Source: Candidatus Bathyarchaeota archaeon
Lineage (GTDB): Archaea; Thermoproteota; Bathyarchaeia; Bathyarchaeales; Bathycorpusculaceae
Reading direction: 5' to 3'
DNA length: 64,000 nt
NCBI GenBank assembly: GCA_963827165.1
Contig: CAWGZR010000011.1
Coordinates: 96,001 to 160,000, forward strand
Part shown: positions 6,438 through 58,360 of the stretch, piece after piece
Layout: each line of letters starts with the position of its first letter
Position numbering within the stretch: position 1 is the first letter of the stretch
Notes under the pieces: model-generated
Told to the model about the DNA's origin: nothing
Database searches by the model: none
Seen by the model: the letters and a program-made list of their open reading frames with translations, nothing else
Made by a program: the position numbers and the translations under genes

Positions 6438-6600
6438 GTTGACTTTAGTTGACGTTAATTGACTTTTGTTGACGTTAGTTGACGGTAGTCGACTTTTGCA
6501 GACGACAGTTGACGTTAGTAGACTTTAGTTGACGCAACCTGCAACCATTCCAAGCCCCATTCCAAAAAAGCAACCCAAAACACAAAGAAAATTTTTTCGC
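6438..6600 (+). repeat. Dispersed repeat copy A: ten 10-bp units (consensus GTTGAC[G/T]TTA) plus conserved tail
   Basis: GAC occurs exactly at 6441, 6451, ... 6531. It is followed by the tail TGACGCAACCTGCAACCATTCCAAGCCCCATTCCAAAAAAGCAACCCAAAACACAAAGAAAATTTT. Confidence 0.9.
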
Positions 6601-6816
6601 CCGTGTGAATAATTATATTTGCATCAAAAAACAACTAAAGATTTAAGGACTTATAATGTCAATGAGGCTTAAGTAAATCGGGAAAGGGGTATGGAAAAAC
6701 AAGATTGGCGACATGGAAGAATGATGTTTGGATTTACTGAAGATTTAAATGGTTGAGGCTGGCATTTTGGGTAAATAAGCATGTAAGGTGCTTCCTTACC
6801 AGTCAAGGCGAGTTAT

Positions 6817-7377
6817 ATGGCTGAGACAGCAGTTGTTAATCCTTCGGGTAAAGAGCCCATCAAAGCTTCTGAGATAGACCCCAAATTCAAGTATCAACTG
6901 CTAAAGATGCATGGAAGCGAGAAAATCCTCAAATGCTTCCAATGTGGAACCTGCACCTCAGACTGTCCCGTAGCAAGGTACAGTGACAGTTACCGCCCAA
7001 GAACACTTATCCACATGGCTCAACTTGGATTAAAAGACCGCGTTTTAAAAAGTGACACTTTATGGCTATGCGCAGCTTGCTTCACATGCACAGATCGATG
7101 CCCACAAGGCGTCGAAGTGGCAAGCGTAATCCGAGTTTTCCGCAATTTAGCCGTAGAAAACGGGTGCGTACCCCAAGTTTTCAAAGACCAAACCGCAAGC
7201 CTACTCGAATCAGGCTACGCCTACAAAATTCCAGATTTAAGGATTAAAAAACGCGAAGTCCAAGGGCTTCCACCTTTACCTAAAGGCAACCCAGAGAAAG
7301 TTAAGAAAGTCCTTAAAGACGTAAGGTTTATTGAATCCGTCCAGAAACCCGCAGGAGGACAAGCTGCTGGGCAGTAA
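6817..7377 (+). CDS. hdrC: Heterodisulfide reductase subunit C
   Basis: CFQCGTCTSDCP and LWLCAACFTCTDRCPQGV. Confidence 0.9.
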   Translation: MAETAVVNPSGKEPIKASEIDPKFKYQLLKMHGSEKILKCFQCGTCTSDCPVARYSDSYRPRTLIHMAQLGLKDRVLKSDTLWLCAACFTCTDRCPQGVEVASVIRVFRNLAVENGCVPQVFKDQTASLLESGYAYKIPDLRIKKREVQGLPPLPKGNPEKVKKVLKDVRFIESVQKPAGGQAAGQ

Positions 7378-8260
7378 ATACCTCATTTTCCTTGGCTGCG
7401 CTATTCCCTACCGCGTTTCAGCATATGAGATTTCCGCACGCAAAGTCCTCGCTAAACTCGACGTTGAATTGGTCGAGATGCCCGAGTTCAACTGTTGCGG
7501 CTTGCCTTTTGATCCTGTTAGCCACGAAACCATGCTTATTCTGGCTGCCAAAAACTTGGCGTTGGCAGAACAGCAAGGCTTGAATGTTCTCACGCTTTGT
7601 CCAGGCTGCGCTGGGTCTCTGAAGAAAACTAACAAAATCCTAAAAGAAGACAAAGCGCTGAAAGAGAAAATTAACCGTCACCTCAAAGAAGCGGGGTTGG
7701 AGTTCAAGGGAACCGTTGAGGCAAAGCATCTTTTGCAGGTGCTCAAAGAAGATGTGGGTATTGAAAAAATCAAAGCCTCAGTCACCAGACCACTATGTAT
7801 GCTCAAGGTCGCCGAACATAATGGCTGCCACATTTTAAGACCTAAACAATATATTGGTTTTGACGACCCGGAAGACCCGCAGACTCTCAAAACGCTAATC
7901 GAAGCAACGGGAGCTACATGCCTCGACTACATTGACGAAACTGAATGCTGCGGAGCGCCCAGCGTAGGAGTCAGCGACAAAATTGCTCTTCAACTCGCAA
8001 GAGATAAGCTCAACCACGTTAAGATGGTTGATGCACAAGCTTTAATCACGATTTGCCCGTTTTGCCACATAATGTACGATACAAATGAGCTTCGAATAGA
8101 GAAAACATTTAATGAAACCTATGGAATTCCCATACTCCACTACCCACAACTACTCGGGTTAGCAATGGGCTTAACTCCTGAAGAATTGGCCTTCGGCGAA
8201 CTCAGAGTAAACGCATCAAAAATAATAAAGCAAGTAACTGAGGAAGTATGCAAACAATGA
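7367..8260 (+). CDS. hdrB: Heterodisulfide reductase subunit B (CCG domains); probable CTG start
   Basis: FLGC, FNCCG, TLCPGC, HNGCH, ECCGA and ICPFCH motifs. GGAGG lies 8 nt before CTG 7367. Confidence 0.88.
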   Translation: MGSKYLIFLGCAIPYRVSAYEISARKVLAKLDVELVEMPEFNCCGLPFDPVSHETMLILAAKNLALAEQQGLNVLTLCPGCAGSLKKTNKILKEDKALKEKINRHLKEAGLEFKGTVEAKHLLQVLKEDVGIEKIKASVTRPLCMLKVAEHNGCHILRPKQYIGFDDPEDPQTLKTLIEATGATCLDYIDETECCGAPSVGVSDKIALQLARDKLNHVKMVDAQALITICPFCHIMYDTNELRIEKTFNETYGIPILHYPQLLGLAMGLTPEELAFGELRVNASKIIKQVTEEVCKQ

Positions 8261-9246
8261 GTAAAAACAAGTTGAAAATAGCCTTTTACTGGGCTGCAAG
8301 TTGCGGCGGCTGCGAAATAGCAGTCTTAGATTTGAACGAGAAAATCCTAGATGTGGTAGCATTAGCCGACATAGTTTTTTGGCCAGTAGCCATAGACGTC
8401 AAATACAAAGACGTCGAAAACATGCCTGACAAAGCCATCGACATCACATTCTTCAACGGATCCATCCGGAACTCAGAACAAGAACACATGGCAAAAGTGC
8501 TGAGGCAAAAATCCAAAACCCTCGTTGCCTTCGGCTCCTGCGCTCATCAAGGAAGCGTACCCGGACTAGCAAACCTGAACGACAAAAACGAGATTTTCGA
8601 GCAAGTCTACGTTAAAGACAAATCAAACGTTAATCCGCAGCTAACCATGCCTAAAACCCAAACCCAAGTGAAGGAAGGCACCCTCAAAATCCCCGAGTTC
8701 TACGACACAGTAAAAACTTTGGCCCAAACAGTCGACGTCGACTATTACCTTCCAGGTTGCCCACCTCCAGTCAAACTAATCGCGAGCGCAGTTGACGCTA
8801 TCGCAAGCGGCAAGCTACCGCCAAAAGGCTCAGTACTCGCCCCACTCAAAGCAGTATGCGACGAATGCCCACGAAAACGCGAAAACAAGAAAATCGACAA
8901 AATCTACCGTGTCTACGAGAAAACTCCTGAACCCGAAAAATGCCTGCTTGAACAGGGCATTCTCTGTATGGGACTTGCTACCAGAAGCGGCTGCGGCGCA
9001 CAATGCTTGAAGGTTGACATGCCTTGCACAGGCTGCGGTGGACCAGCTCCGAATGTGCCTGAACAAGGTGCAGCGATGATTTCTGCTTTAGCTTCGATTC
9101 TAGGGTACGAAGGTGAACCGGGAAAAACTACATATACTGAAAAAGAGATTGAACAGTTGCTTAGCCAAGTGAAAGATACCGTTGGCACATTTTATATGTA
9201 CAGTTTACCAGCGTCGATCTTGAAGAGAAAGGTGATTAAGAAATGA
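8257..9246 (+). CDS. mvhG: MvhG small subunit of group 3c [NiFe] hydrogenase
   Basis: WAASCGGCE, FGSCA, LPGCPP, VCDEC and CLLEQGILCMG...CGAQC...PCTGCGG. Confidence 0.9.
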   Translation: MSKNKLKIAFYWAASCGGCEIAVLDLNEKILDVVALADIVFWPVAIDVKYKDVENMPDKAIDITFFNGSIRNSEQEHMAKVLRQKSKTLVAFGSCAHQGSVPGLANLNDKNEIFEQVYVKDKSNVNPQLTMPKTQTQVKEGTLKIPEFYDTVKTLAQTVDVDYYLPGCPPPVKLIASAVDAIASGKLPPKGSVLAPLKAVCDECPRKRENKKIDKIYRVYEKTPEPEKCLLEQGILCMGLATRSGCGAQCLKVDMPCTGCGGPAPNVPEQGAAMISALASILGYEGEPGKTTYTEKEIEQLLSQVKDTVGTFYMYSLPASILKRKVIKK

Positions 9247-10698
9247 AAGAAATAATCATAGACCCGATAACTACGGCTTGAAGGACACGGAAACGTATCC
9301 ATATTCTTAAACGACAAAGGCGAAGTTGAAAACGCATACCTCAAAATCCCAGAGTTGAGAGGTTTCGAGAAATTCTGCATCGGCAGAAAAGCCGAGCTCA
9401 TGCCACAACTCACCACAAGAATCTGCGGTGTCTGCCCAGTTGCACATCACTTCGCAGCTACCAAAGCCCTGGACGCAGCTTTCCATGTTGAACCACCCGA
9501 ACCAGCAAAGAAACTTCGGGAACTCATGTACACCGCTTACTTCATCTACGACCACATCCTACACTTCTACTACCTCGGCGGACCAGACTTCATAGTTGGA
9601 CCAGACGCACCGCCAGAAAAACGCAACATTCTAGGAGTAATCGAAAAAGTCGGAATGCCCATCGCCAAAGAAGTCATAAAACACCGCGCTTACGGTCAAA
9701 AAATGACTGAGATCATTGGTGGTAAAGCCACTCACCCCGTCTGCGGCCTACCCGGAGGAATCAGCAAGCCTCTGAGCGAAGAAAACAGGAAAGAAATAGA
9801 GACAATGGCGGCTTCATGCGTAGATTTCGCGCAGTTCACACTAAAAATCTTTCATGACATCGTGTTGGGTAACACAAAATATGTTGAATTAATCAAAAGC
9901 CAAGCCTATACAATGCCAACCTACTATATGGGCACAGTAGACAATAACAACAAAGTCAACTTTTACGACGGCAAAATCCGCGTAGTTGACCCATCAGGAA
10001 AAGAATTCCTCAAATTCGACTCGCAAGACTACCTCAAACATATCGCTGAACACGTTGAAGAATGGACCTACAGCAAATTCCCGTACCTTAAAGCAGTCGG
10101 CTGGAAAGGACAAATCCCCGGCAAAGACAGCGGTGTCTACCGCGTTGGTCCACTGGGACGATTGAACGCTTCAAACGGCATGGCGACACCCTTGGCCCAG
10201 GCAGAATACGAAGTCATGTACAAGACCTTGGGCGGCAAACCAGTACACAGCACGTTGGCTTTCCATTGGGCACGTTTGATTGAGTTGCTCTACGCTACTG
10301 AACGAACCATGGAGCTCGTTAAGGACCCAGAAATCACCAGCACAAACGTCCGCAACAAGCCCGGAGAACCAGGCGAAGGAGTAGGCATCGTAGAAGCGGC
10401 GCGCGGCACATTGATCCACCACTACGTCTTAGACAAAGATGCGCTCGTTAAAGACGTAAACCTGATTGTTGCTACAACCAATAATTACCCAGCGATCTGC
10501 ATGAGCATTCGCGACGCGGCAAAAGGCTTAATCCACGAAGGCAAAGTCGACCAAGGCATACTGAACATGGTTGAAATGGCTTTCAGAGCATACGACCCGT
10601 GTTTCGGATGCGCAACACACGCTGCAGTCGGGCAAATGCCTCTAACTGTAGAAGTCTTCAACGCCGACAAACAGCTAATCGACTCTGTCAGCCGGTAA
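9243..10698 (+). CDS. mvhA: MvhA large subunit of group 3c [NiFe] hydrogenase; +1 frameshift at about 9273
   Basis: MKEIIIDPIT (ATG 9243), then an extra A, then RLEGHG. L1 is RICGVCPVAH and L2 is YDPCFGCATH. Confidence 0.9.
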
Positions 10699-10808
10699 AC
10701 CAAACCCTATTTTTAAAGGGCAAAATTTTTTCTCTTTAGTTAAGCTAAATTCCACTAGACAAATCTTATAAGCGCTTGCTATCGAATAATCTTTTGGCTG
10801 GACGGAAA

Positions 10809-11282: not shown

Positions 11283-11375
11283 GCAGTGTCCACAGGCCTT
11301 TGTGCAGCTTACCCCTTACCTTTGAGGGTAAACCCTTATGTGCATTCTCGAACTTCTCTTTTGATTTGATTTGGA

Positions 11376-21834: not shown

Positions 21835-21908
21835 GGGCCCGTAGCTCAGTTAGGTAGAGCGCCAGACTCATAATCTGTTGGTCAGGAGTTCAAATCTCCT
21901 CGGGCCCA
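21835..21908 (+). tRNA. tRNA with CAT anticodon, most likely tRNA-Ile2 (agmatidine type), intronless
   Basis: Cloverleaf with GGGCCCG/CGGGCCC-A acceptor, GCTC/GAGC D stem, CAGA-CTCATAA-TCTG anticodon arm and AGGAG-TTCAAAT-CTCCT T arm. The GGGCCC acceptor is typical of archaeal Ile tRNAs. CCA is not encoded. Confidence 0.9.
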
Positions 21909-21912
21909 CATC

Positions 21913-21942
21913 AAAGCAACTCAAAACACACAAATTATTTGC
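21913..21942 (+). repeat. Partial tail of the dispersed repeat
   Basis: AAAGCAACTCAAAACACACAAATTATTTGC vs copy A AAAGCAACCCAAAACACAAAGAAAATTTT. Confidence 0.4.
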
Positions 21943-22027
21943 AATAATAGACGCTCTAAAATGGTAAATGCCGCTGTTTCTTAGTCCGCAATCTCGCCTA
22001 AAAGACCAAAAAGCTTAATGATGGATT

Positions 22028-23338
22028 TTACGGAGTTATTGTTAGTTGGGGGTCGGCGAACCATGCTGTTCCATGTTCATTTGAGCCTTGCGAGTCACTC
22101 CAAACTTGACACCAAGGAATACAGAATGATGGAGTAAAAAGTGTACCTACCGGCTGTCCATTTGTTACTTGATTAGCTGTATAAGTTGATGACAGAACGA
22201 AAGTCATCGTTACTTGTGTCCACACATTAGTTCCAAACTTAACATAAGTATTAAATGAATCTGAAATTTGAGAGGAGATACCGTTTGGTGTTACACTGCC
22301 GTAAGATGCCCCATTAACACCATAAATATCTATACCTAAACGACCTCCCGCTTGAGGATTTCCGGAGTCAGCCGAAAGAGTTGCCGCTGAAGTCTGAATC
22401 CAACAACTGAAAACAACCGTATCCCCTGGTGAAATGTTTATCCCACCGTGGTCCACTCCCGAGTTCATCGATGAAAGTGCAACTTCCCAAGATGGTGAAT
22501 CTGCATAAGTGTCGGTCGTGTCAAGCACAACGTTGAGGGCAGGACACTTGAGCCACTGAGAATCAGTGTACCAGTCACCATCGTCAATTGAAATTAAACT
22601 GTTTCCGGCGGGGGCGGATGTTGGCGCAGGTGTTGCTGTTTGAGTCGGCGTTGGCATAAGTGCTGGTGGATTAATCGAAGAATAAGCTGATGTTGAATCA
22701 CGCGTTTGTATGTCGCTTGTACCAGTTGAGGTTGTTGCTGTGTATGCTTGAACATTACATTCTGAATAGTATGTTGCTTGTGAAGTGAACACTGTTACTC
22801 CAACAGTTAGACCTATGTCATTAACCGTGATGCTATCTGGGTTGTTGATGTAAACAATTAAAGTGTTGCCTGATTTGGGAGTGATTTCGCCGTTGGCTTG
22901 AGTTAATGCGGACCCTTGAGTTAGCGTGTCGCCTGAACTGATAAAGGTATAAGCGTCATTTTCTGTCAGCTCAGATGAATATCCAAGATCAGTGGTAACT
23001 GAGCCCACTACGGTAAATACGTCCGTCCAACCAACAGATTGACCTCTGATAGTAATTTTGTTTATAACTAAGTCTCGACCGCCAGTGTTAATCATCATGA
23101 ACGCCGCTTGAGCTGCTCCGGCACCACTACCGCCAGTTGGATCGTACCACACGTGTAGCATCGTTATGGAGAGGCTTTCTTGTTGAATTTGAGTGCTAGT
23201 AACGTTGATGGCATAGTAAGTTACGGTTCCTGCGAGAAGCACTGAAACAACCAGAATAATCAGCGAAGTAACGACGGTGGCTAGAGCGCGCCTGCTACGT
23301 GGAAATTGCATCAATCTATCGACTGATCGATTTTTCAA
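22028..23338 (-). CDS. Type IV pilin/archaellin-like protein with T/P-rich linker and C-terminal putative carbohydrate-binding domain
   Basis: Class III signal RRA|LATVVTSLIILVVSVLLAG; pilin motif MINTGGRDLVINKITIRG; PTPTQTATPAPTSAP linker; Trp-rich beta domain ending GTAWFAD. Confidence 0.75.
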   Translation of the reverse strand: MKNRSVDRLMQFPRSRRALATVVTSLIILVVSVLLAGTVTYYAINVTSTQIQQESLSITMLHVWYDPTGGSGAGAAQAAFMMINTGGRDLVINKITIRGQSVGWTDVFTVVGSVTTDLGYSSELTENDAYTFISSGDTLTQGSALTQANGEITPKSGNTLIVYINNPDSITVNDIGLTVGVTVFTSQATYYSECNVQAYTATTSTGTSDIQTRDSTSAYSSINPPALMPTPTQTATPAPTSAPAGNSLISIDDGDWYTDSQWLKCPALNVVLDTTDTYADSPSWEVALSSMNSGVDHGGINISPGDTVVFSCWIQTSAATLSADSGNPQAGGRLGIDIYGVNGASYGSVTPNGISSQISDSFNTYVKFGTNVWTQVTMTFVLSSTYTANQVTNGQPVGTLFTPSFCIPWCQVWSDSQGSNEHGTAWFADPQLTITP

Positions 23339-23606
23339 GCCCTGTCAACGATTAACCCTTGGCTCAAAATAATTAGTACCTGTGTGCATAATCTTTAAGA
23401 CATAATGGATTCCAACAAGACAACTTGTGCAATCAAATTCTAAGATGTTATTCATGGGATGCGAACGTTGCGCGATATTGAGTTTTTTGTGAATACCATG
23501 GGAGTAGGCATGCCCCTTGTACAATCAAAGAAATAAATTTATGTGATCTAGCGTCAAATTCATTAAAGAGCCATGAGTAAAACATTATGGGCTCTATGCT
23601 CCAGAC

Positions 23607-23650
23607 AATCTGCTGGTCAGGAGTTAAAATCTCCTCGGGCCCACATCAAA
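23607..23650 (+). repeat. att-like copy of the tRNA 3' half
   Basis: AATCTGCTGGTCAGGAGTTAAAATCTCCTCGGGCCCACATCAAA. Confidence 0.9.
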
Positions 23651-23673: not shown

Positions 23674-24192
23674 GTGAAGCCTGCTCTGAAAACAAATCCA
23701 GCCTATGAGGCAGCGTCGTTTGTTAAGGGTCACCAGTTGATAATCGGCTTGCTGCTGGTTTTCTTCGGAGTCAGCGATGTTTGGTTTGTTATGCCTAATC
23801 TCTACGGCACTTTCCACGGGTTTTATTTGAACTGGCAAGTCTTCTATTTCTACATGCCTGAATGGCGCTTTACGATCCCGACCCTTCTAGTTATGGCGCT
23901 GATTGGAACTTTAATGCTGACGGTTTACTGCATAAGAGATATTGAGGCTGAGAGAGTTGACAATAAGGAGCACGCTGCCGTGTTGGTGACAGCGCTCGGA
24001 TTCGCGTATCTGATACTAGGGGCTTGGCCGCTGTGGACACAATCGTACCCTTGGGCATGGCAGCAGGAAATTGCAAACTACGGAAACCTGCTAGTTTTGC
24101 CGCTTTTCGCAGGCAGCCTCATAGCGCTAATTGCAGGTTCGGTTTCGCTATACATTCACAGCAGAATTTACCATCAAAAACACCCTGAATGA
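23674..24192 (+). CDS. Hypothetical membrane protein (about 4 TM)
   Basis: Hydrophobic segments throughout. Confidence 0.7.
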   Translation: MKPALKTNPAYEAASFVKGHQLIIGLLLVFFGVSDVWFVMPNLYGTFHGFYLNWQVFYFYMPEWRFTIPTLLVMALIGTLMLTVYCIRDIEAERVDNKEHAAVLVTALGFAYLILGAWPLWTQSYPWAWQQEIANYGNLLVLPLFAGSLIALIAGSVSLYIHSRIYHQKHPE

Positions 24193-24214: not shown

Positions 24215-24340
24215 GCAAATTTTTTTGTTTGTATTTTAGGTTGCTTTCTTGTAAAGAAGCTTGAATCATTGGCAGGTTGAGTCTGAAAAAGACACTAAAA
24301 TATACTATTATACAATTTTAGACATTATTAGACAATTTTA
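24215..24340 (-). repeat. Dispersed repeat copy D with six degenerate 10-bp units
   Basis: Reverse complement is ...AGACTCAACCTGCCAATGATTCAAGCTTCTTTACAAGAAAGCAACCTAAAATACAAACAAAAAAATTTGC. On the + strand GTCT/GACA/TATA/TACA/GACA/GACA fall at 24281, 24291, ... 24331. Confidence 0.8.
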
Positions 24341-24432
24341 AAATTAAACCGGATGATCCGTACGCCGAACTCGAAAAGTAACCCTTTATAGGAATGCTCC
24401 AGTGGAAAAAACGCCGCGAGAAGAAAGTATTT

Positions 24433-24503
24433 TTCGCTTTTTTCGATTTGGGTTGCGTTTCTGGTGGGGCTTGAATTGGTGGCAAATCACGACCCAATTT
24501 GTC
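24433..24503 (-). repeat. Dispersed repeat copy F
   Basis: Reverse complement TGCCACCAATTCAAGCCCCACCAGAAACGCAACCCAAA vs copy A TGCAACCATTCCAAGCCCCATTCCAAAAAAGCAACCCAAA. Confidence 0.72.
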
Positions 24504-24563
24504 TCTCTTCTGAGCCAAAATCACTCTTTACGTTCATTTTTGACTTTTGCCCTTGCTTCCTAT

Positions 24564-25049
24564 TTATTTTTGACCTGCTGTTTGCCCAACCGCTGTCACT
24601 TCTCTTCGAGGGGGCTTGGGGTTCAGTTTTTTCTGAAGCAGCACCCCTTCTATGAGGAAAAGAACCATAGCTACTCCAGTCATGCCTGTTAAGAAAAAGA
24701 AGCTGACTTGAATCACTAAACCGTTTATTAGGGTGCTCAGCAATATTATTGCTATCTCGGCTGCGAAAGCGCCAAGAAAAAAGAAGGAGTAGAACATCAA
24801 GCGCGGTACGAGGTTTCGGCCAACCCAGACGTGCCCGTTGATGTTTGTTTTCTCCTTTAAGATGTAGTCGCCATAACTGTTTCTTTCGATTAAACCCATG
24901 TCCTCAAGTTTCTGCAGATGCCTGAATGCGACGCTTGTGCTGCTTAGGTTTGCGCCTCTGGTTACGTCCCGTGTTCCCACTGGCTTTGCTGTGTGGACGA
25001 TGTATGCGTAGACGTTTAATGTGTTGCCTTCAAGTTCGTCGTTAGCCAC
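24564..25049 (-). CDS. Membrane-anchored winged-helix transcription regulator
   Basis: N-terminal wHTH (VGTRDVTRGANLSSTSVAFRHLQKLEDMGLI) plus two C-terminal TM helices. Confidence 0.8.
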   Translation of the reverse strand: MANDELEGNTLNVYAYIVHTAKPVGTRDVTRGANLSSTSVAFRHLQKLEDMGLIERNSYGDYILKEKTNINGHVWVGRNLVPRLMFYSFFFLGAFAAEIAIILLSTLINGLVIQVSFFFLTGMTGVAMVLFLIEGVLLQKKLNPKPPRREVTAVGQTAGQK

Positions 25050-30958: not shown

Positions 30959-31024
30959 CTTGTTTTTAGGTTAGTAAGACGGGCTGAGAAGGCTCTGATT
31001 TAAATCACGATTCAGATTGCGACA
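30959..31024 (-). repeat. Degenerate dispersed repeat copy E
   Basis: Reverse complement TGTCGCAATCTGAATCGTGATTTAAATC...TAACCTAAAAACAAG. Confidence 0.45.
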
Positions 31025-36881: not shown

Positions 36882-36991
36882 TGTAAAAACCAATATGCTA
36901 ATTTGTATTCGCCTATATTTGCTTGTCGGCAACAGGCGTTTGCAGAAGCCTTTTTACCCGCCTAAACCATATTTTTTAATTGGCGATTTTT

Positions 36992-37372
36992 ATGTCTACT
37001 TCTCAAAATCAAAGTAAGCTGACTTCCCAAGAGAAACGTGTCATAGAGGACAAAGGCACCGAGGCACCGTTCACGGGCAAATACTTCGCGTTTTGGGACA
37101 AAGGCACCTACGTCTGCAAACGCTGCCACACTCCATTATACCGTTCAGAAAACAAGTTTGAAGCCAACTGCGGCTGGCCAAGCTTCGACGAAGAAATCCC
37201 TGGAGCTGTTAAACGTGTTCCTGATCCAGACGGCGTTCGTATCGAGATAGAGTGTGCCAACTGCGGCGCTCACCTTGGACACGTTTTCATGGGCGAGCAC
37301 TTCACCGAAAAAGACACAAGACACTGTGTCAACTCGATCTCGATGGATTTCATACCTGACAAAAAAGAGTAA
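36992..37372 (+). CDS. msrB: Peptide methionine-R-sulfoxide reductase
   Basis: GTEAPFTG, CKRC, CGWPSF, CANCGAHLGHVF and RHCVNS. Confidence 0.94.
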   Translation: MSTSQNQSKLTSQEKRVIEDKGTEAPFTGKYFAFWDKGTYVCKRCHTPLYRSENKFEANCGWPSFDEEIPGAVKRVPDPDGVRIEIECANCGAHLGHVFMGEHFTEKDTRHCVNSISMDFIPDKKE

Positions 37373-37509
37373 GCCTCCTTTTCCATTTTTGTGTTTGGTT
37401 CTGGTCACAGGCAATTGATCCTCTCATTGGCCTTTTTGGGACCATTTTTACAATGAAATTTTGACGTACATAAGGTGTACCCCTATCGGTTTCACTGTGG
37501 CGATCTGCG

Positions 37510-37550
37510 CTTGTTTTGCGTTGCTTTTTTGGTTGAGGGTTTGAATTCGG
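37510..37550 (-). repeat. Dispersed repeat copy C (tail only)
   Basis: Reverse complement ATTCAAACCCTCAACCAAAAAAGCAACGCAAAACAAG. Confidence 0.7.
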
Positions 37551-37670
37551 CTCAAATGAAGAGTGGAAATCGAAAGTTATGAAAAGCGGATCCATATTGG
37601 CTAGTTGTAAATGTAGCCCGCAAATGGTTAAGTTGCAGTTTTCCCATATTTGAAAGTCTGTGGCCAATTT

Positions 37671-38006
37671 ATGAGCAAAAAAGAATCTTCTAAACTTGCA
37701 GGCAAGGCATCAAGCCTTCCGGGCCTGATCGATTATCAGGAGGGCTCAGTGGTTAGCCGTACTTTAATCGACAAGAAAACGGGAACAGTTACCCTTTTCG
37801 CATTTGACCAGAATCAAGGCTTAAGCGAACACACCGCCCCCTACGATGCATTGGTTTACATAATCGAAGGAGAAGTTGGCATCACCATATTAGGTAAGCT
37901 GCTGACGCTAAAGCAGGGCGAAGTAACCATCTTGCCCGCCAATGAGCCTCATGCCTTATCGGCGAAAACAAAGTTCAAAATGCTCTTAACAATGATAAAA
38001 TCCTAA
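37671..38006 (+). CDS. Cupin domain protein
   Basis: TLFAFDQNQGLSEHTAP...EGE...PANEPHAL. Confidence 0.88.
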   Translation: MSKKESSKLAGKASSLPGLIDYQEGSVVSRTLIDKKTGTVTLFAFDQNQGLSEHTAPYDALVYIIEGEVGITILGKLLTLKQGEVTILPANEPHALSAKTKFKMLLTMIKS

Positions 38007-43639: not shown

Positions 43640-43999
43640 TTACTTGTTTTCTTCTGACTTGTATTTAGCCATGGCAGCCTGGATCAGTTGGTTTCGGTCT
43701 TTGAACTTCCCCGCTTTGACTTGCTTATCCGCCCAGTCGAGGAACGCCTTGTCCAAGTTAACCAGAACCGTCTGTTCGCAGTCTTTCAGTTCTTTGCTGA
43801 TTAGTATCAAGTAGCCTTTTTCGATGAGCCAGTGGTGAAACTGCCAGGTAGTGCAAAGACATGCGTTGTTGCACTTCTTCCTTGTCTCTTCGTATTCAGG
43901 TGAACCTTCCGAAAGTCCGTCGAGTTTCACCTGAACGGGGCATTTTACTTCTTTGCAGAATTCTCTTCGCTTATACTCAGCGAACCCTTCGACAGCCAT
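43640..43999 (-). CDS. Cys/His metal-binding domain fused to C-terminal ribbon-helix-helix domain
   Basis: FCKEVKCP...CNNAC.C..WQFHHWL, then VLVNLD...WADKQVKAGKFKDRNQLIQAAM. Confidence 0.65.
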   Translation of the reverse strand: MAVEGFAEYKRREFCKEVKCPVQVKLDGLSEGSPEYEETRKKCNNACLCTTWQFHHWLIEKGYLILISKELKDCEQTVLVNLDKAFLDWADKQVKAGKFKDRNQLIQAAMAKYKSEENK

Positions 44000-44103
44000 C
44001 TTACATCGCGCCTAACTTTGCATTTAAAACTAAATAAGTGTTGTTTTGATCATTGGAAAAATTTGGGATGCACTTTTAAGGCAGTTTTTTGATTTGTTGA
44101 TGT

Positions 44104-44742
44104 ATGCCCCTGCTCTATCTCTTAGGTGGAGAAAACGTTGTTAAGCGAAGTGCATCTGAAATTAACGAGCAGGCGCTCCAAGACGCAAAGGCGCCCCGTT
44201 CCGTCGCGGTTCTTCCTTGGGCGCGAGCGTCGTTTGACCGAAAATACGAGAAAAGAAAAATCTTCACCGACTACTTCATCAGCCTCGGTGCTGGCGCCGT
44301 AGATTTTGTGGAATACTCCGATGCAACCGAATCAATTGCAGAAAAAATTTCTTCGTCAAACCTGATTTATTTGACCGGTGGCTACGTCAACGCTTTAGTT
44401 GAACGCCTTAGAAAAAGGCATGTAGACGATCTGCTTCGCATATACAGTGGAGTCATTGTGGGCAGAAGCGCAGGCGCATTGGCTCTTTGCAAAAAATGTG
44501 TCATAACTTGCCGTAGCAACCAAAAAATCCGTTTAGTCGAGGGTCTAGGTTTAGCCGATTTAACCCTTAAGGCTCACTACAAACCTCAAAAAGACGCTGC
44601 GCTTCTGGTTCTTTCGAAAGGCGAGAAAATCTATGCGGTTCCCTCCCGTTCTGCAATCGTTTACGACACGGGTGTGTGCTCACTCATGGGAGAAGCTTAC
44701 CTGTTTGAGGACGGCAAAAAGAAATCTGTAACAACTTTCTGA
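44104..44742 (+). CDS. Peptidase E / S51 family
   Basis: IYLTGG, GRSAGA nucleophile and KAHY. Confidence 0.85.
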   Translation: MPLLYLLGGENVVKRSASEINEQALQDAKAPRSVAVLPWARASFDRKYEKRKIFTDYFISLGAGAVDFVEYSDATESIAEKISSSNLIYLTGGYVNALVERLRKRHVDDLLRIYSGVIVGRSAGALALCKKCVITCRSNQKIRLVEGLGLADLTLKAHYKPQKDAALLVLSKGEKIYAVPSRSAIVYDTGVCSLMGEAYLFEDGKKKSVTTF

Positions 44743-53510: not shown

Positions 53511-54272
53511 ATGGAAGTTTCCAAAATATCCAGTGCGTCTGAGCTCGAATTCGTCTTCCCAGACGGCTTCTCATTCTTTGAGCCTTATATTCAATACTTC
53601 GTCAAAGAAATTCTCGAGGTAGGCGGCGAGGCGTATGTCTCGAGAACTTCTGAGGGCGAGGTTTCGGGCATATTCATGTATGACCTGTCTGAGAATCAAG
53701 GAACAATTTACACGAGGTCAAGAGAAGTCTTCGACCACTTTTACGCCTTAAAACCGTTCAATTTCTTGTTCGCGGAGTTGAAAACTGAGCTCGAAAATGA
53801 AATCTACGATATTTACGGTGTACAATTTGAGAACATACCTGTTGATCATCGCTTTAGCTACGAGATTTCCATGGCGGATAAGGATCGAGTTGGTGAGATT
53901 GAGCAATTCATGTCTGCAACCCATCCTGGGATAAACAAAAAGTGGGTAGGCGTGGCGCTTAAGAATGGCCAACGGTGCTTTGTTGTCAGCTTAAACCACG
54001 AAATTGCAGGGTTAGGCTGGGCTACGATTGTGAATGGCGTTGGAAGATTGCATACTCTCTATGTGAAACCCCAGTTAAGGCGAATAGGCATAGGGGAAGA
54101 TATTTTGAATGCCCGTCTTCTCTGGCTTAAGGCAAATCACGCCAATTCTGCATTCTGCGAGATTTCCCGTTACAACGTGGCTTCAGCTGGGAATGTTATG
54201 AAAGCGCATATGCGGGTGTCTGGACAGGTTTTCCAGTATTTTAGGAAAGACTTCGATAAAAATAAGAAATAA
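53511..54272 (+). CDS. GNAT family N-acetyltransferase
   Basis: LYVKPQLRRIGIG acetyl-CoA motif in the C-terminal domain. Confidence 0.8.
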   Translation: MEVSKISSASELEFVFPDGFSFFEPYIQYFVKEILEVGGEAYVSRTSEGEVSGIFMYDLSENQGTIYTRSREVFDHFYALKPFNFLFAELKTELENEIYDIYGVQFENIPVDHRFSYEISMADKDRVGEIEQFMSATHPGINKKWVGVALKNGQRCFVVSLNHEIAGLGWATIVNGVGRLHTLYVKPQLRRIGIGEDILNARLLWLKANHANSAFCEISRYNVASAGNVMKAHMRVSGQVFQYFRKDFDKNKK

Positions 54273-54289
54273 AAACTTAGGGTTCGAAC

Positions 54290-55312
54290 CTATGTTCTGG
54301 GCGCTCCGCAAATGGGACAAGTTTCTGCGGTGGAGTCTATTAGTGCTCCGCAGTAGCGGCATTTTACTTTTACAACCTCTTTAATCACGATCTGCTGCAC
54401 TTGCGGCTGCTTCGGAGTCAAATCAATTTGGGGTACAGGCGGCGGCGAAGTCGGCGGGGAATATTCTTGTTGGGGGCTATGCTTTGGAAGGCTTCTTCTC
54501 CTGGAAATAGCGATAATGATGATGATGACTATGATTACAATGATAACAAGCGCTATTGCCGCGATGAGGCCAACATTTAGGGTTGCACTCGAATTTCCTC
54601 CAGTTGCCGTCGTCAGCGAATAGCTGCTTGAGGTCACATATAGGTTGTCGGTCCATGTGAACCCGTCGCCTGAAGGGTTGGTATCGTGTTCAACGTATTC
54701 ATATCCGATTATGTACCCCGTGGTCGGGTCAAAGTAGGCTTTCCACGTGTAGGCGGCGGTGAATTGTCCGTAGTTATCGTTGCGTTCATAGCTTGAGGTT
54801 CCTTGGGCAGAAATCGCGTTGACGTTCCTGTTCTGGGAGGAAAGATAGTAGCTGTAGCTAGTGGATTCGACGGTCATTTGGGTGTTTAGAATGGTGAAGG
54901 CGCCTCCATTCTGGATTGAGTTATCCATCAGGAACCAGACTGTTGGGTTGACATAGCCTGTTTGGTCGTCTGTCCCATCGATGTAATAGTAGTCGGCGGA
55001 TGAGAAAGTATAGCTTCCTGATTGGCTGCCGGTTTCGGTTGAGCTTGAGGAGCTGTTGCTGTAAGTCCAAGAGTAGTCATATGAGGCAGAAACGACTCCG
55101 CTCGCATCAACGCTGTTCATCGTTTCCTTTCCATCCACAACTGTCTGCTCAGTGTAACCAGAATAGCTACCTGTGCCGCTTCCAAGGCTTTCAACCTCGT
55201 GATAGTTGAAGTGGTCGCCTTGATGGGGCACGTAGGTTGCCGCGGCAATGACTGGAGAAGCTGCTATGAAAAGCGAAAGGACGATGATAAGAAACAGGGA
55301 TTTCGAGGTCAA
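54290..55312 (-). CDS. Single-pass membrane protein: extracellular S/T/Y-rich domain, TM, Pro-rich linker, cytoplasmic zinc ribbon
   Basis: Signal peptide, YFDPTTGYIIG, IIVIIVIIIIIAISRRR and CRYCG...CPICGA. Confidence 0.8.
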   Translation of the reverse strand: MTSKSLFLIIVLSLFIAASPVIAAATYVPHQGDHFNYHEVESLGSGTGSYSGYTEQTVVDGKETMNSVDASGVVSASYDYSWTYSNSSSSSTETGSQSGSYTFSSADYYYIDGTDDQTGYVNPTVWFLMDNSIQNGGAFTILNTQMTVESTSYSYYLSSQNRNVNAISAQGTSSYERNDNYGQFTAAYTWKAYFDPTTGYIIGYEYVEHDTNPSGDGFTWTDNLYVTSSSYSLTTATGGNSSATLNVGLIAAIALVIIVIIVIIIIIAISRRRSLPKHSPQQEYSPPTSPPPVPQIDLTPKQPQVQQIVIKEVVKVKCRYCGALIDSTAETCPICGAPRT

Positions 55313-56868
55313 CCCATGAACCCTCCGACTCCGTGTACGTGTGCAGGATGGAAGCCTCCGATGGAACTGAACGTAGAGTAATAGTATGAATGTGCGACTA
55401 TCAGCGGTGCGTAGTAGAGGAAGAATATGTTTGATGGAATATATGTGAATTGCATCGGGGTGTTGGTGAGTTTTGCGGTTGGATCAAGTTCCTTTACCAG
55501 TTCGTTTTTGACTCCGTGAATCATTCTGACTGAGAGACTCAGAAGTTCAGGGGGAAAGAGGTCTTTAGCGTATGTTCCAAGCAGAGAATAGGCTTTCTGC
55601 ATCAAGTCAAGGGTCTCGTTGGCTTCGAGCGTTGATATAGACGCAAGGATCGCGGAGGCAACAAGTGGATACTCAAGATAGTTTTTGAGTGCATCGACAA
55701 TTATTGTCAACTTCGTGTTCACTTCACCAGGTGCTAAATCGGCGATCGACAGATACGCAGAAGCAAGTTCGGTATCCTCCGACACCTGATATCCCCAGGA
55801 ATTAAACATCGATCTGAAAGACTGGAATTTATCGGTCAACTGGTCAAAAGGAACATTTACAACAGCGAGGATTGCAGCTGATTCACTCGAAGAGGTCATT
55901 TTGGAAAATTGCGCAAATCTATCAGTTGGAAATGTCCCGTCAAATCTTTTTCCGAACATGATGATGGCTGCGACACCGACTGACAGCTCTTTTGGAACCT
56001 TATCATGCCTGACTTCCTTGTCAAGGTTTCCCAAGGAAGCTAACAGGTTTTGCAAGTCGGAATCACTAGACGACTGAGTTTGGCCATCCGCAAAGCTGGT
56101 AATAATCTCTGCCGCCATCATCTTGTTTTCGATGGTGGATTTGAAATGCTGAAGACTGTTTGTGGCCAGAAGAAATCTTTGGGAGATTTGATTAGGGTCG
56201 CCCTGAAGCTTTCCTAAGCCCACTGAGACGCTCCACAGCTGGGAAAGGTCTGCCCCTGGAAATTCAGCGATGAACCGATTGGCGTAGAAGGCAGCTTTGT
56301 ATGCTATGTTCCTTAGTTCATCGGACGTTTCCTTTGTTTCTTCGATGAAGTCTGAGAACTCGTTGCCAGAAACCCTGTAGTTTCTGACGTTGAGATCATT
56401 CAGTGTCACTACTCCGAGCCCAGTTAATGACAGATATACGCCGCTGTAAGGCACCATTCGATCAGTCACGGATTTCTTCTGAATTAACTCGTTAATTTTA
56501 GCGTCTTTTTCTGCTATTTCACCGTCAATTTTCGAAACAGCCGACTTTTCACTTTCAACTTTTTCGCGTTCCGCTTCCTTAACCTCTTTTCCTTCAAAAA
56601 GAAACTTGATCGAATGAGTTTTGCCCTCATCTTCTTGAAGCGCGCTTTTTGCGCCCCTATCTGCATTCTCCTCATTCGCCAAATCTATGCTCATTTGCGT
56701 CAAACTTGAAACTTCAGCCACAGCCTGATCGTAAGCTTCTTTCTGCATAACAGAAAGGTAGCCATTATCGCGTAGAAAATCAATGTCAGGTTGGGAAATT
56801 TGCATTGAAATTGATTTTTCAGCTATTTGGGAAAAAAATGTTCTAGCGTCGTTGCAGCGCATATTCAT
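55309..56868 (-). CDS. Hypothetical 519-aa protein: coiled coil inserted in a wHTH-like domain, helical repeats (DUF4003-like), Gly/His-rich tail
   Basis: FLRDNGYL...coil...YLSLTGLG; repeated [A/S]AIL[A/S] helices; GGFHPAHVHGVGGFMG. Confidence 0.75.
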   Translation of the reverse strand: MNMRCNDARTFFSQIAEKSISMQISQPDIDFLRDNGYLSVMQKEAYDQAVAEVSSLTQMSIDLANEENADRGAKSALQEDEGKTHSIKFLFEGKEVKEAEREKVESEKSAVSKIDGEIAEKDAKINELIQKKSVTDRMVPYSGVYLSLTGLGVVTLNDLNVRNYRVSGNEFSDFIEETKETSDELRNIAYKAAFYANRFIAEFPGADLSQLWSVSVGLGKLQGDPNQISQRFLLATNSLQHFKSTIENKMMAAEIITSFADGQTQSSSDSDLQNLLASLGNLDKEVRHDKVPKELSVGVAAIIMFGKRFDGTFPTDRFAQFSKMTSSSESAAILAVVNVPFDQLTDKFQSFRSMFNSWGYQVSEDTELASAYLSIADLAPGEVNTKLTIIVDALKNYLEYPLVASAILASISTLEANETLDLMQKAYSLLGTYAKDLFPPELLSLSVRMIHGVKNELVKELDPTAKLTNTPMQFTYIPSNIFFLYYAPLIVAHSYYYSTFSSIGGFHPAHVHGVGGFMG

Positions 56869-58037
56869 TACCGATCCATTATTGGGAATTTCTTAGTTAA
56901 AGATTGCTCTCCCATGATGTTACCGACGACCAGCTTAAGGCTTTGCCCCTCACTTGCAAGGTCAACAACTTCATCATCTTTGAGGGCTTCTTTGAGGAAA
57001 TATTCAAACTGCGCTTTCCTATCCGCGATAACCTCGAACCTTGCACATCGTTCCCGTTCTATCTGCTCGTAAGCATACATAAACTCATACAAGGATCTGT
57101 AAATCTGATCATCTATCTTTTCCGAAACTTTCTTTTCCTCAACGGTTATCCATTCCAAGCCCTCAAGATCCACAAAATAAATAGTGCCGTCCGGAGCGAG
57201 CACTGCGTCCTTGTCCAGCCACACATCATAGAAATCTAGTCCACTGAAAGTTCCGTTGCCATTGCTTTTTATTGACCTAGTAAACAGGGTTAGAAATGCG
57301 ATTCCGCTCTTAACAAAGTTCTTCAGGAACTCCAACGCTTTGTCATTGCTGTTTATTTCAAAAAGATCAAAAACCGAACGCGTGTTTCCGCCGATTGTGC
57401 TCCCGGAATGAAAATAAATCCTAATGTTAGACGGAACCAACCTTATCTCCTGAACCATCCTGCCGCCAAACCTGCGGTACCAAAACAATTTTTTTGCTTC
57501 ATCTTCGAGTTTTTTGGGAAGAAAGACTATTTTCACAACCGGCGCAATTCGGAATCCGTGAATGGAAGTGAGATCGGCCATTTCTGAAACTCTCATCGAA
57601 GTGACTGCATGCTCCAAGCCTTGTCCCCCATATGGCGAACCCCTTAGCCACAATTCTCCAGTCAGGTATCGTGGCGATTTTTCTTCAAAATTAATGATTG
57701 CGTCTTTGAGTTTGGAATCTTTAAGCAGACTGCATATTTCGGCTTTTCCTAGGAGCTGGTGGGAAAACGGGTTGGTCGTAGAACCTATTCCTTTAACTGA
57801 AAAGTAAAAGTCAGTGCCATCTAACTTCACGAAAGGCGAAGTGGCGACTGCTCCGCGGTTATCGTCAACAATAAACTCTTTTGAACCCGACGGGGTGCCG
57901 TCCAAGAAAGGTCTCATGCTCTCGGGAACGTAAATTTTTTCAAAATCTGGCATCTTGAACTCTTTAAAATGCTTGTTTGTCAAAAACTCAGAAACTTCGT
58001 AAGTGTCAAGAGTGAGAGGTAAACCTTTCAGCTTCAT
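56868..58037 (-). CDS. Divergent protein-kinase-like protein resembling SelO/YdiU AMPylases
   Basis: DNRG, SVKGIGS...PFS, PYGGQ, IRLVPSNIRI and WLDKDAV...YFVDLE. Confidence 0.6.
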   Translation of the reverse strand: MKLKGLPLTLDTYEVSEFLTNKHFKEFKMPDFEKIYVPESMRPFLDGTPSGSKEFIVDDNRGAVATSPFVKLDGTDFYFSVKGIGSTTNPFSHQLLGKAEICSLLKDSKLKDAIINFEEKSPRYLTGELWLRGSPYGGQGLEHAVTSMRVSEMADLTSIHGFRIAPVVKIVFLPKKLEDEAKKLFWYRRFGGRMVQEIRLVPSNIRIYFHSGSTIGGNTRSVFDLFEINSNDKALEFLKNFVKSGIAFLTLFTRSIKSNGNGTFSGLDFYDVWLDKDAVLAPDGTIYFVDLEGLEWITVEEKKVSEKIDDQIYRSLYEFMYAYEQIERERCARFEVIADRKAQFEYFLKEALKDDEVVDLASEGQSLKLVVGNIMGEQSLTKKFPIMDR

Positions 58038-58270
58038 GGGCAGTTCACATTTCGTTATGATGGTTTAACTCTTAAATCTAATGCAACTATAATCAGTTTA
58101 ACCTATTCTCTACAGGGCCTTGCGACATGCGGATTAGTATTTGAATTAATAAAACGGAATTTTGAAAACTCTATGGAGCACGGTGTAATAGTTTTGAGCT
58201 AAAACATGTTGAGATGTGACACTGCGACTTTTATTGTTGTTAATTGGGGGTAATGTATGCTTTTTGGCTT

Positions 58271-58360
58271 TGTGACGTTTAGTGACGTTTCATGACGCAA
58301 CCTGAAGACGATTCAAACCCTGATGCAAAAAACCAATCTAAAACAAAGAAAAAATTGTGC
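58271..58360 (+). repeat. Dispersed repeat copy B with three 10-bp units
   Basis: GTGACGTTTA GTGACGTTTC ATGACGCAACCTGAAGACGATTCAAACCCTGATGCAAAAAACCAATCTAAAACAAAGAAAAAATT. Confidence 0.85.

Follow-up and report, generated by a model that had tools for sequence, protein, structure and literature searches.

A dispersed A/C-rich intergenic repeat of Bathyarchaeia, probably MITE-like, with a variable 10-bp minisatellite

In typical MITE families the ends are common to the copies and the interior is variable, and BOX elements follow the layout boxA-boxB(n)-boxC. The BrickBuilt MITE of Porphyromonas gingivalis has a ‘leader’ and a ‘tail’ subunit, separated by a minisatellite whose units have no spacers (Klein et al. 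2015, PMC4596501). BOX was judged to be parasitic, slow to transpose and to affect neighbouring transcripts (Croucher et al. 2011, PMC3049150). Here we analyze a repeat predicted in a 64,000-nucleotide stretch of a Bathyarchaeota contig, the whole of which we call the window. The original prediction knew of no described element with this architecture, which was too strong, given that MITEs with a minisatellite between leader and tail are on record (PMC4596501). The family itself is undescribed, but of a known kind; our literature search found no paper on repeats in Bathyarchaeia, nor a description of their non-coding DNA. We conclude that the five copies in the window are probably decayed members of a MITE-like family that carries a 10-bp minisatellite in its interior and can be compared with BrickBuilt or BOX, and that the pattern can be explained without invoking a host function.

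The conserved tail had been reported at five dispersed sites of the 64-kb window, and all of them were borne out: A (6529-6595, +), B (58293-58358, +), C (24217-24284, -), D (24431-24495, -) and E (37504-37563, -). When each copy in turn was withheld from the nhmmer profile, it came back as the best non-training match (leave-one-out E 3.8e-9 to 1.1e-3), and a profile made only from 63 loci of other genomes retrieved the same five copies with E-values from 1.3e-9 to 8e-4, the next match in the window being at 0.64. Copy A begins with a 10-bp minisatellite (6438-6529, +) of about 9-10 units, with consensus GTTGACGTTA and a 30-bp higher-order period; over 6438-6534, TRF gave period 10, 9.7 copies, 70% matches and 0 indels, and scored period 30 above period 10. 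The linker TGACGCAACCTGCAACC (6530-6546, +), whose first 10 nt double as the last array unit, agrees with the family linker (G)ACGCAACCTGCAAAC. It is followed by the A/C-rich core ATTCCAAGCCCC-ATTC-CAAAAAAGCAACCCAAAACA (6547-6582, +), with one C more than the family consensus, and by the A-rich tail CAAAGAAAA and six T (6583-6597, +), as read from the sequence. This tail type, CAAAGAAAAAAATT, is common to L022, L069 and L080 (L-numbers denote related loci in other genomes). The other-genome profile matched copy A at 6529-6583 with E 6.4e-9, and the leave-one-out value was 3.8e-9.

Copy B shows a short array of 2-3 units, GTGACGTTTA GTGACGTTTC ATGACGCAAC (58272-58301, +), the last of which overlaps the linker (TRF 58272-58297, period 10, 1.9-2.5 copies). 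The rest of the linker, the core (58311-58345) and the A-rich tail occupy 58302-58356 (+; nhmmer 58293-58345, E 1.3e-9), and the copy is flanked by hsp20 (58380-58934, -; Pfam HSP20) and an unknown 389-aa gene (56868-58037, -). Copies A and B form an 84-nt direct repeat with 70% identity. The array of copy C (24285-24334, -) has about 5 units of the TGTCTAATAA type, unlike those of A and B; TRF reported 3.5 copies of period 10 at 24306-24340, and by eye 5-6 units lie in 10-bp register. Its linker AGACTCAACCTGCCAATG, core (24232-24266) and A-rich tail span 24217-24284 (-; nhmmer 24233-24284, E 8e-4; leave-one-out E 2.1e-6). Homology of copy C to the right part of the full-length relative L031 extends to around 24108, with positions 364-549 of that element aligning to 24298-24108 of the window (E 7e-5). 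Copy D (24428-24495, -) consists of a linker-like stretch, a 33-nt core (24444-24476) and an A-rich tail, and was matched at 24444-24493 with E 3.2e-5 by the other-genome profile and with E 3.5e-5 when left out. C and D lie in tandem in the same orientation with about 210 bp between them, and same-orientation pairs at 170-280 bp were also found in L001, L011, L031, L048 and L082. Regarding copy E (37504-37563, -), it has a core (37512-37546) and a short tail with no clear linker (nhmmer 37509-37558, E 2.6e-9 with the other-genome profile; leave-one-out E 1.1e-3), and it sits between msrB (36980-37372, +; Pfam SelR) and a cupin gene (37650-38006, +; Pfam Cupin_2). The 10-bp units noted ahead of three copies were confirmed by TRF at A, B and C, and no array was detected in the window at D or E. 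By eye, copies B, C and D deviate from the consensus at roughly 6-9 of the 35 core positions, as expected of decaying copies. The intergenic position of all copies also holds: only two ORFs overlap them, 24402-24692 (+) over D and 37350-37667 (-) over E, the latter with no Pfam match, and we judged both to be spurious.

Two weaker sites had been listed as well, and neither stood up to the profile searches. The degenerate copy at 30959-31024 gave E=15 with the window-derived profile and was outside the top 20 matches of the other-genome profile, while the partial copy at 21913 is a 15-mer match with 1 mismatch, whose site scored E 0.008-0.6 in leave-one-out searches and 2.9 with the other-genome profile. 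A tRNA-derived or att-site origin, considered for a tail-like 15-mer directly 3' of tRNA-Met, was rejected, the match not being significant. The 3' half of tRNA-Met is duplicated 1.7 kb off, enclosing a 436-aa ORF. Searches of Pfam, NCBIfam and PDB gave no match for this ORF, which is not an integrase and whose N-terminus, by our own reading, looks pilin-like and hydrophobic. Allowing up to 3 mismatches, the 15-mer by itself shows no enrichment in the window (9 occurrences vs 4.1 expected; 4 of 100 shuffles reach 9), as a chance resemblance of A/C-rich intergenic DNA would have it. We give chance virtually no credence, however: it is refuted by the leave-one-out searches, by the other-genome profile, with E-values down to 1.3e-9, and by 63 related loci with the same linker and 35-nt core.

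These loci come from a single exact-pattern scan of 185,579 species genomes, which returned 88 matches: 63 are the element and the remaining 25 are chance matches, mostly in bacteria. The further copies in other Bathyarchaeia that the original prediction proposed to look for by genome scan do exist, as 54 of the 56 element loci on titled contigs fall in 19 Bathyarchaeia MAGs. Up to 7 exact-core matches were found per MAG, at unrelated loci, and these counts are lower bounds because the scan demanded an exact core. On sequence grounds, the repeat family is real and, as far as one exact-pattern scan shows, confined to a clade of Bathyarchaeia; searches in ‘distant’ mode of a phage and a plasmid record collection gave no homologue in either. 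The segment common to all copies measures about 85 bp and comprises the linker, a 35-bp A/C-rich core, ATTCAARCCCTAAACCAAAAAAGCAACCCAAAACA, which is nearly invariant among the retrieved loci because the exact search pattern required it, and the A-rich tail; the composition of linker, core and tail is A 47%, C 29%, G 12% and T 12%. Three architectures can be distinguished (an array type, a 272-bp MITE type and a promoter-proximal ‘type 3’).

The absence of terminal inverted repeats and of target duplications, noted in the original prediction, stands for the five window copies, whose ends are undefined, but not for the family. Six related units that contain the shared segment (L014, L017, L023, L031, L039 and L077) are non-coding and 272-557 bp long, compared with 60-160 bp for the window copies, and in all six the left end matches the reverse-complemented right end over ~11-13 nt, of the type GTGTATTTAGSC. 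In three of them, exact direct repeats of 9-10 nt abut both ends (CTTAATAGG, TTTAACTTG and TAGTAATTAT), and at the other three the flank repeats are degenerate and no longer than 5-6 nt; in control pairs of 18-nt windows at the same spacing, the chance of a shared word of at least 9 nt was P=5e-4. With inverted repeats of ~12 bp and target duplications of 9-10 bp, the best-preserved units look like MITEs. Besides, one MAG holds three near-identical units of 272-274 bp at unrelated loci. Among the 63 related loci, inverted-repeat ends at up to 2 mismatches were present in only 6-8, and end-like motifs in 11, with both ends in only 4. A left-end profile retrieved L017 and L031 in addition to its five training loci, a right-end profile gave no loci beyond its five training loci, and our search of the window found neither MITE end motifs nor other family modules near the copies.

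Orthologous sites differing in occupancy, another of the checks suggested at the outset, were found in three comparisons, the junctions being too diverged to show a single-copy target. The intergenic region 43999-44104 of the window (105 bp) is empty, vs ~430 bp with a full unit in L023; a 60-bp module lies directly 3' of the core in L059 and is missing from the orthologous L044, L075 and L066; and the 3' flank of a helicase gene has two elements in L048 and none in the window. A non-autonomous mobile element, one of the readings first offered, is supported by the inverted repeats and target duplications of intact relatives, by the near-identical copies at unrelated loci and by these filled and empty sites. 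No transposase or integrase family was found among 108 flanking proteins (E<=1e-8) or among the 68 window ORFs scanned, nor did we find an autonomous element with matching ends. Most of these 108 flanking proteins are products of unrelated housekeeping genes, which rejects a gene family shared beside the elements. According to the mechanism that we propose, the ~12-bp inverted repeats would be bound by a transposase encoded elsewhere in the genome, and the unit would be moved in trans. Minisatellite units would be gained and lost by slipped-strand mispairing in register, which would keep all periods at multiples of 10; the 10-bp period may have been inherited from one ancestral array, whose unit sequences would have drifted and been homogenised within arrays. 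Old copies would shed their ends, leaving the internal segment, the state presumed for the window.

An upstream tandem array is present in 33 of the 63 loci, 5-45 nt ahead of the shared part, and no array was found upstream at the other 30. Its unit sequence varies between subfamilies, and near-identical copies may have as few as 2 units or at least 12: in one array subfamily, with five copies in a second MAG, we counted 1.9, 4.6, 6.6 and at least 12.2 units, the fifth being cut by a contig end. Indels affect 10 of the 31 arrays with a period of 10, 20 or 30, which weakens the case for selection on exact helical phase, and the array behaves as a neutral minisatellite. We also rejected the possibility that the units are amplified target-site duplications of local flanks: units of a single type are found at multiple loci within a genome, which means that the array moves together with the element. 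In L050, one similarity to the flank is suggestive. The arrays are not coding repeats, since 10 nt is not divisible by 3, and they differ from CRISPR arrays in having head-to-tail units of period 10 with no spacers.

The proposal of a polar chromosome-structuring site fared poorly. Element orientation runs +, -, -, -, + along the window, and opposite orientations are found on single long contigs, such as L019 (+) and L069 (-), 8 kb apart; one orientation per replichore, as in Chi/KOPS-like polar motifs, was not observed, and the GC skew of the window is weak with no single switch. One could argue instead that the core is a cis-site for a host DNA-binding protein (a chromatin protein, an SMC loader or a ParB/SegB-like protein), with the array as a helically phased platform for spreading or bending, and that MITEs merely spread the core. 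In line with this, linker and core are the sole segment common to the array, 272-bp MITE and ‘type 3’ architectures, four MAGs retain an element at the orthologous TFE locus despite divergence of the intergenic DNA around it, 31 of the 33 arrays hold a period of 10, 20 or 30, and by eye their units share an xAC plus pyrimidine-rich pattern. Yet both orientations occur as just described, the array is missing from about half of the family loci and from two of the five window copies, indels break the 10-bp register in 9 of 17 diverged arrays, units differ strongly between copies of one genome, the apparent invariance of the core came from the search pattern, and orthologous sites are sometimes empty, so we regard this reading as quite unlikely. 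Nevertheless, against the MITE norm, it is the interior and not the ends that the three architectures share, which could mean that the core itself is selected or that it is the active site of spread. An unlikely but wider reading is that the 35-bp core is more than passive MITE cargo: a putative conserved cis-site for a lineage-specific recombinase or transposase or for a chromatin factor, the elements forming a landing-pad or regulatory system. It would explain why the core alone is common to all three architectures, why units are always gained at one place just 5' of the linker, why the 60-bp module was inserted exactly 3' of the core, and why one variant is kept upstream of information-processing genes, e.g. 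TFE, in four species.

Independence from gene orientation, claimed for the window, extends to the family: over 51 loci, element orientation does not track that of the neighbours, the flanks being (+,-) in 16, (+,+) in 14, (-,+) in 13 and (-,-) in 8, counts that rest on crude greedy ORF gene calls. This bears on a regulatory module, promoter-proximal in ‘type 3’ or acting as a terminator or insulator through T-runs of the complementary strand. T-runs are the archaeal termination signal. The complementary strand of the element has several of them (T6, T4 and T7 in the reverse complement of core and tail), and they lie just 3' of a gene at window copies B (hsp20), C and E (msrB). The ‘type 3’ subfamily combines two direct boxes with a TATA-like TTAAAAAT upstream of genes, in that a second AAAGTCGCAAC box is followed by a TTAAAAAT-like sequence. 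Of 11 ‘type 3’ loci, 9 are followed downstream by a gene in the same orientation, which starts at a distance of 160-280 nt in 8 of these 9 (716 nt in L074). Across the family, however, the downstream gene is co-oriented at 27 of 51 loci and convergent at 24, so no orientation rule emerges; the genes around the elements may be divergent, convergent or tandem, and in L048 one element, in non-terminator orientation, starts at the upstream gene's stop codon. We thus hold a regulatory module to be distinctly improbable, and its terminator-only form, which fitted the window, failed over the 51 loci. Under the preferred MITE-like reading, side effects on neighbouring genes are likely.

The small-RNA reading of the original prediction also lost ground. 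A small unstructured RNA family, with the array at its 5' end and a CA-rich conserved 3' part, serving for example as a protein or RNA sponge, could draw on the canonical-looking TATA (CTTTATATACC) that ends ~33 nt ahead of the core in the 272-bp subfamily, and on T-runs 20-55 nt past the core in L017, L031, L067 and window copy A. We consider it highly improbable, as the arrays are not preceded by any conserved promoter-like motif and the unit sequence is not conserved between copies. A structured RNA was rejected: over the 77-nt linker-core-tail of 62 loci, folding was no better than in shuffles on either strand and the segment was predicted to have less structure than they do, with a mean MFE of -4.1 kcal/mol and a mean z of +0.47 on the forward strand, and of -12.6 kcal/mol and +0.36 on the reverse. 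The suggested comparison with Rfam gave no match to the element at gathering thresholds, with tRNA-Met as the only hit in the window and an SRP RNA and two tRNAs, none on the element, in 20 loci.

Bathyarchaeia are abundant uncultured archaea of sediment and peat. Defining the family allows its copies to be annotated and masked. Short-read assemblies are interrupted by the arrays, with L030, L011 and L049 terminating within an element or next to one. The arrays can also serve directly as VNTR markers for tracking strains, and the repeat, as a marker of the lineage, can expose mis-binned contigs, e.g. L051 and L071. Should the core prove to bind a protein or to act as a promoter, it would offer a first entry point to cis-regulation in this clade of Bathyarchaeia.

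Finally, we compared the family with known systems. REP/BIME elements with RAYT (Nunvar et al. 2010, PMC2817692) are likewise abundant short intergenic repeats that build mosaic composites and may bind host proteins. However, REPs are imperfect palindromes in alternating orientation (PMC2817692), whereas the bathyarchaeal element has no palindrome and its tandem pairs share one orientation; no stem-loop palindrome was found in linker, core and tail over the 62 folded loci, nor a Y1 transposase among the 108 flanking and 68 window proteins scanned. BOX of Streptococcus pneumoniae is also modular and intergenic with a variable internal tandem number, but its modules are 45-59 bp long with extensive secondary structure (PMC3049150), in contrast to an A/C-rich element predicted to be unstructured. 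Archaeal MITEs of Sulfolobus, Halobacterium and Haloquadratum are likewise non-autonomous and intergenic, and have inverted-repeat ends and target duplications as do the best-preserved units here (PMC10969869); among those that the used sections of this review describe, none comes from Bathyarchaeia or has an internal 10-bp minisatellite, a distinction made by description and not by sequence. BrickBuilt is bacterial with a 23-nt unit (PMC4596501), and the bathyarchaeal family is archaeal with a 10-nt unit whose sequence varies by subfamily; most copies of the bathyarchaeal family, including all five in the window, are without recognisable ends, and its core is also present without an array. 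BrickBuilt has small inverted-repeat ends, as do the best-preserved bathyarchaeal units, and both families are always intergenic and occur in tens of copies within a limited host range (PMC4596501).

The dispersed repeat first described from the sequence alone lies in the window in five main copies, at the positions originally read: A (6529-6595, +), B (58293-58358, +), C (24217-24284, -), D (24431-24495, -) and E (37504-37563, -), all confirmed by sequence and by nhmmer profiles. In leave-one-out searches the omitted copy was always the top non-training match (5 of 5), with E-values of 3.8e-9, 4.2e-6, 2.1e-6, 3.5e-5 and 1.1e-3 for A to E, respectively. A second profile, trained exclusively on 63 loci from other genomes, found the same five copies (E-values from 1.3e-9 to 8e-4), the next match having an E-value of 0.64. 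Two further copies of the original prediction did not hold: the 'degenerate' one at 30959-31024 gave an E-value of 15 with the window-derived profile and was not recovered by the other-genome profile, and the 'partial' one at 21913, after tRNA-Met, is a 15-mer with one mismatch whose E-values (2.9 with the other-genome profile, 0.008-0.6 in leave-one-out) are not significant. Regarding the period-10 arrays upstream of three copies, TRF bore them out, with 9.7 units, no indels and a 30-bp higher order in copy A, 1.9-2.5 units in copy B and 3.5 units in copy C (5-6 by eye). Copy C is homologous to the right part of L031, a full-length element from another genome, and this homology extends down to 24108. 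It covers the last ~85 nt (24108-24192) of ORF 23674-24192 (+, 172 aa, no Pfam match); either the element supplies the end of this ORF or the ORF is spurious.

The window has a GC content of 45.7% and, by Pfam, an archaeal gene content (RadA, aEF-2, two PurP, aldehyde:ferredoxin oxidoreductase, Hdr/Mvh-type and NiFe-hydrogenase subunits), and two of its genes show 74-78% nucleotide identity to contigs titled Bathyarchaeia. A NuoF/HoxF-like gene (182-1850) is divided between two ORFs that overlap and are read in different frames, 182-1186, with 2Fe-2S_thioredx and the first 119 of 150 positions of Complex1_51K, and 966-1850, with SLBB and NADH_4Fe-4S; a frameshift or sequencing error near 1090-1190 is the likely cause. 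The 52-nt direct repeat with 77% identity between 4219-4270 and 10374-10425 lies in two NiFe-hydrogenase large-subunit genes (3047-4540 and 9355-10698) and stems from the two paralogous hydrogenase modules that the window contains. We also noted a second copy, 95% identical and at 23607-23650, of the 3' 44 nt of tRNA-Met (21872-21915); the pair flanks a single 436-aa ORF (22028-23338, -) whose hydrophobic N-terminus is like an archaeal pilin signal. This ORF has no match in Pfam, NCBIfam or PDB and no integrase is present at the site (21835-23650); the arrangement resembles a scar left by a past integration, or else a local duplication.

The repeat is dispersed and lineage-restricted. A single scan of genome contigs with a degenerate pattern that required an exact core, satisfied by three of the five window cores, yielded 88 stretches. 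Judging by the 4-6 nt between the pattern halves and by shared flanks, the element accounts for 63 of them; the other 25 are chance matches, mostly in bacterial coding DNA. All family loci come from genomes other than the window's own, which is outside the returned scan records, since no locus is identical to the window. Among the 56 titled loci, 54 belong to contigs of 19 MAGs titled Bathyarchaeia or Bathyarchaeota, and the remaining two to contigs titled 'Candidatus Acidoferrum' and 'Limnocylindrales'. The copies on bacterial-titled contigs, L051 (DATIXS010000308.1) and L071 (DATHCJ010000005.1), are typical, and these contigs are possibly mis-binned. Copies per genome reach at least 7, counts that the exact-core pattern makes lower bounds; the same demand partly imposes the near-invariance of the core among the retrieved loci.

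All family loci have in common a linker, (G)ACGCAACCTGCAAAC(A/G), a 35-nt core, ATTCAARCCCTAAACCAAAAAAGCAACCCAAAACA, and an A-rich tail that comes either as CAAAGAAAAAAATT or as ACTTGAACAAAAAA. Around them, alignments read by eye define three types. Type 1 has a tandem array adjoining the linker. A tandem repeat ends 5-45 nt before the core in 33 of the 63 loci, with a period of 10, 20 or 30 in 31 of them, the other two being 2-copy 11-mers in non-array loci. Subfamilies differ in the array unit (e.g. CGACACATCC, TAGGACATTC, CTTCCTTGTC, TGACGTGTAG and TAGCCTTTTTGCACCTTTTC), and an xAC-plus-pyrimidine pattern, also read by eye, is common to the units. Type 2 is devoid of an array and carries, directly after the core, a 60-nt 'module 2' ending CTACTATTTGTG/AC...AAAAAACCAACA, of which L003 has four copies in tandem; the boundaries of this module were likewise drawn by eye. 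The ends of this module (...CCTACCCTACTATTTGTG...) are each similar to one half of the core, so the module may be a duplicated core carrying an insert. In type 3, AAAGTCGCAAC boxes flank the core on both sides and TTAAAAAT comes after the last one, giving the layout GAAAGTCGCAACTTTCAC-N8-AAAGTCGCAAC-TTAAAAAT after the core. Left and right parts combine freely, L062 and L084 joining a left-hand array to a right-hand module 2. As with C and D in the window, tandem pairs of one orientation, separated by 170-280 bp, occur in L001, L011, L031, L048 and L082.

Intact relatives of the element have inverted-repeat ends and, in half of the units examined, exact 9-10 bp duplications, and the element is present or absent at orthologous loci. 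We examined six units bounded by terminal inverted repeats of the GTGTATTTAGSC type: L014, L023, L039 and L077 (272-274 bp), L017 (371 bp, containing an array) and L031 (557 bp, containing two cores and two arrays). The left end is GTGTATTTAGG/CC in all six, and the right end, in reverse complement, is GTGTGTATTTAGC, or GTGAATATTCAGCC in L017. Exact direct repeats of 9-10 bp (CTTAATAGG, TTTAACTTG and TAGTAATTAT) abut both ends of three units, while the flanks of the other three share only 5-6 nt. Among 17,873 control pairs (18-nt windows, same spacing), a shared word of at least 9 nt had P=5e-4 and none reached 10 nt. One MAG carries three nearly identical units at unrelated loci. Empty orthologous sites, which the original prediction had proposed to look for, were also seen: the 105-bp divergent intergenic region at 43999-44104 of the window corresponds to ~430 bp with a full unit in L023, and the 3' side of a helicase gene has two elements in L048 and none in the window. 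Besides, in L059 a module 2 of 60 bp sits precisely at the junction of core and CAAAAAGC; it is absent from the orthologous TFE loci L044, L075 and L066. In most loci homology is limited to positions 160-280 of the 376-nt L017 query, and it is longer in L011, L019, L022, L033, L055, L068 and L077, as would be expected if copies had decayed or been truncated.

The copy number of the internal 10-bp minisatellite changes fast. Another MAG has five copies of the CGACACATCC subfamily, four of them with 1.9, 4.6, 6.6 and at least 12.2 units. In one MAG, three contigs terminate within or right next to an element (L030 and L011 at the start, L049 at the end), one of them in at least 12 perfect 10-bp units; arrays thus appear to break short-read assemblies.

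According to these results, we consider it probable that this is a MITE-like family with an internal minisatellite, moved in trans, whose ends have decayed in old copies. A transposase encoded by another sequence would mobilise the element, array units would be gained and lost via slipped-strand mispairing, ends would decay in old copies such as those of the window, and neighbouring transcription would be affected incidentally. Some observations do not fit a simple MITE. The window copies have no terminal inverted repeats, as first stated, and a search near A-E found no end motifs, which few family loci show; no transposase or integrase family was detected among 108 flanking proteins (E<=1e-8) or, with Pfam, among the 68 window ORFs. 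What the three architectures have in common is an internal core, not ends, and the TFE locus keeps the element in four MAGs in which the surrounding intergenic DNA has diverged. Together these points keep a host function in play, and one could argue for a platform that binds a host protein. We hold this to be unlikely. Indels in 10 of 31 arrays, and in 9 of 17 diverged ones, weaken helical-phase selection, and the constant period is more simply explained by inheritance from one ancestral array, kept by in-register slippage.

The gene context agrees with the independence from gene orientation first reported, all four flank configurations occurring by crude greedy ORFs: (+,-) 16, (+,+) 14, (-,+) 13 and (-,-) 8; a further 12 loci were incomplete. 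The proteins on either side come from unrelated housekeeping genes, their few homologous clusters being orthologous loci. The polar chromosome-structuring site once proposed is not supported: orientation flips twice in the window, where GC skew is weak, and is mixed on single contigs. In type 3 loci (TFE loci L044, L059, L066 and L075, and L002, L035, L040, L043 and L074 among them), the next downstream gene is co-oriented in 9 of 11 and starts 160-280 nt away in 8 of these 9; in four MAGs it is TFE. This variant may be a shared promoter or regulator site, and the family as a whole is quite unlikely to be a regulatory module. A small-RNA family, also suggested originally, is highly improbable: the 77-nt conserved part (A 47%, C 29%, G 12%, T 12%) is predicted to fold no more stably than dinucleotide-shuffled sequence, whichever strand is taken, which speaks against a structured RNA. 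Rfam at gathering thresholds gave nothing on the element in the window or in 20 family loci. In L069 (oriented 2126-2440), an array-type element lies ~100 nt upstream of an SRP RNA gene in the same orientation (RF01857, 154.9 bits).

Regarding known systems, REP/BIME membership fails because the element has no palindrome. BOX elements have the layout boxA-boxB(n)-boxC. In pneumococci, they are a second analogue of the Bathyarchaeia element, judging by the available part of the source (PMC3049150). Archaeal MITEs are listed, in the portion at hand, only from Sulfolobus, Halobacterium, Haloquadratum, Desulfurococcus and 'several other' genomes (PMC10969869), and Bathyarchaeia are absent from the main text, as far as available, of two large surveys (PMC13343696 and PMC11602168). 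Our full-text literature search found no description of this Bathyarchaeia family, so we file it as new, of a known MITE-like kind. The original prediction knew of no described element with this architecture; it has a comparable layout, and its nearest described counterpart, in BrickBuilt of P. gingivalis. The accessible text presents BrickBuilt as a MITE whose ends are small inverted repeats and whose leader and tail subunits enclose a minisatellite with a 23-nt unit (PMC4596501).
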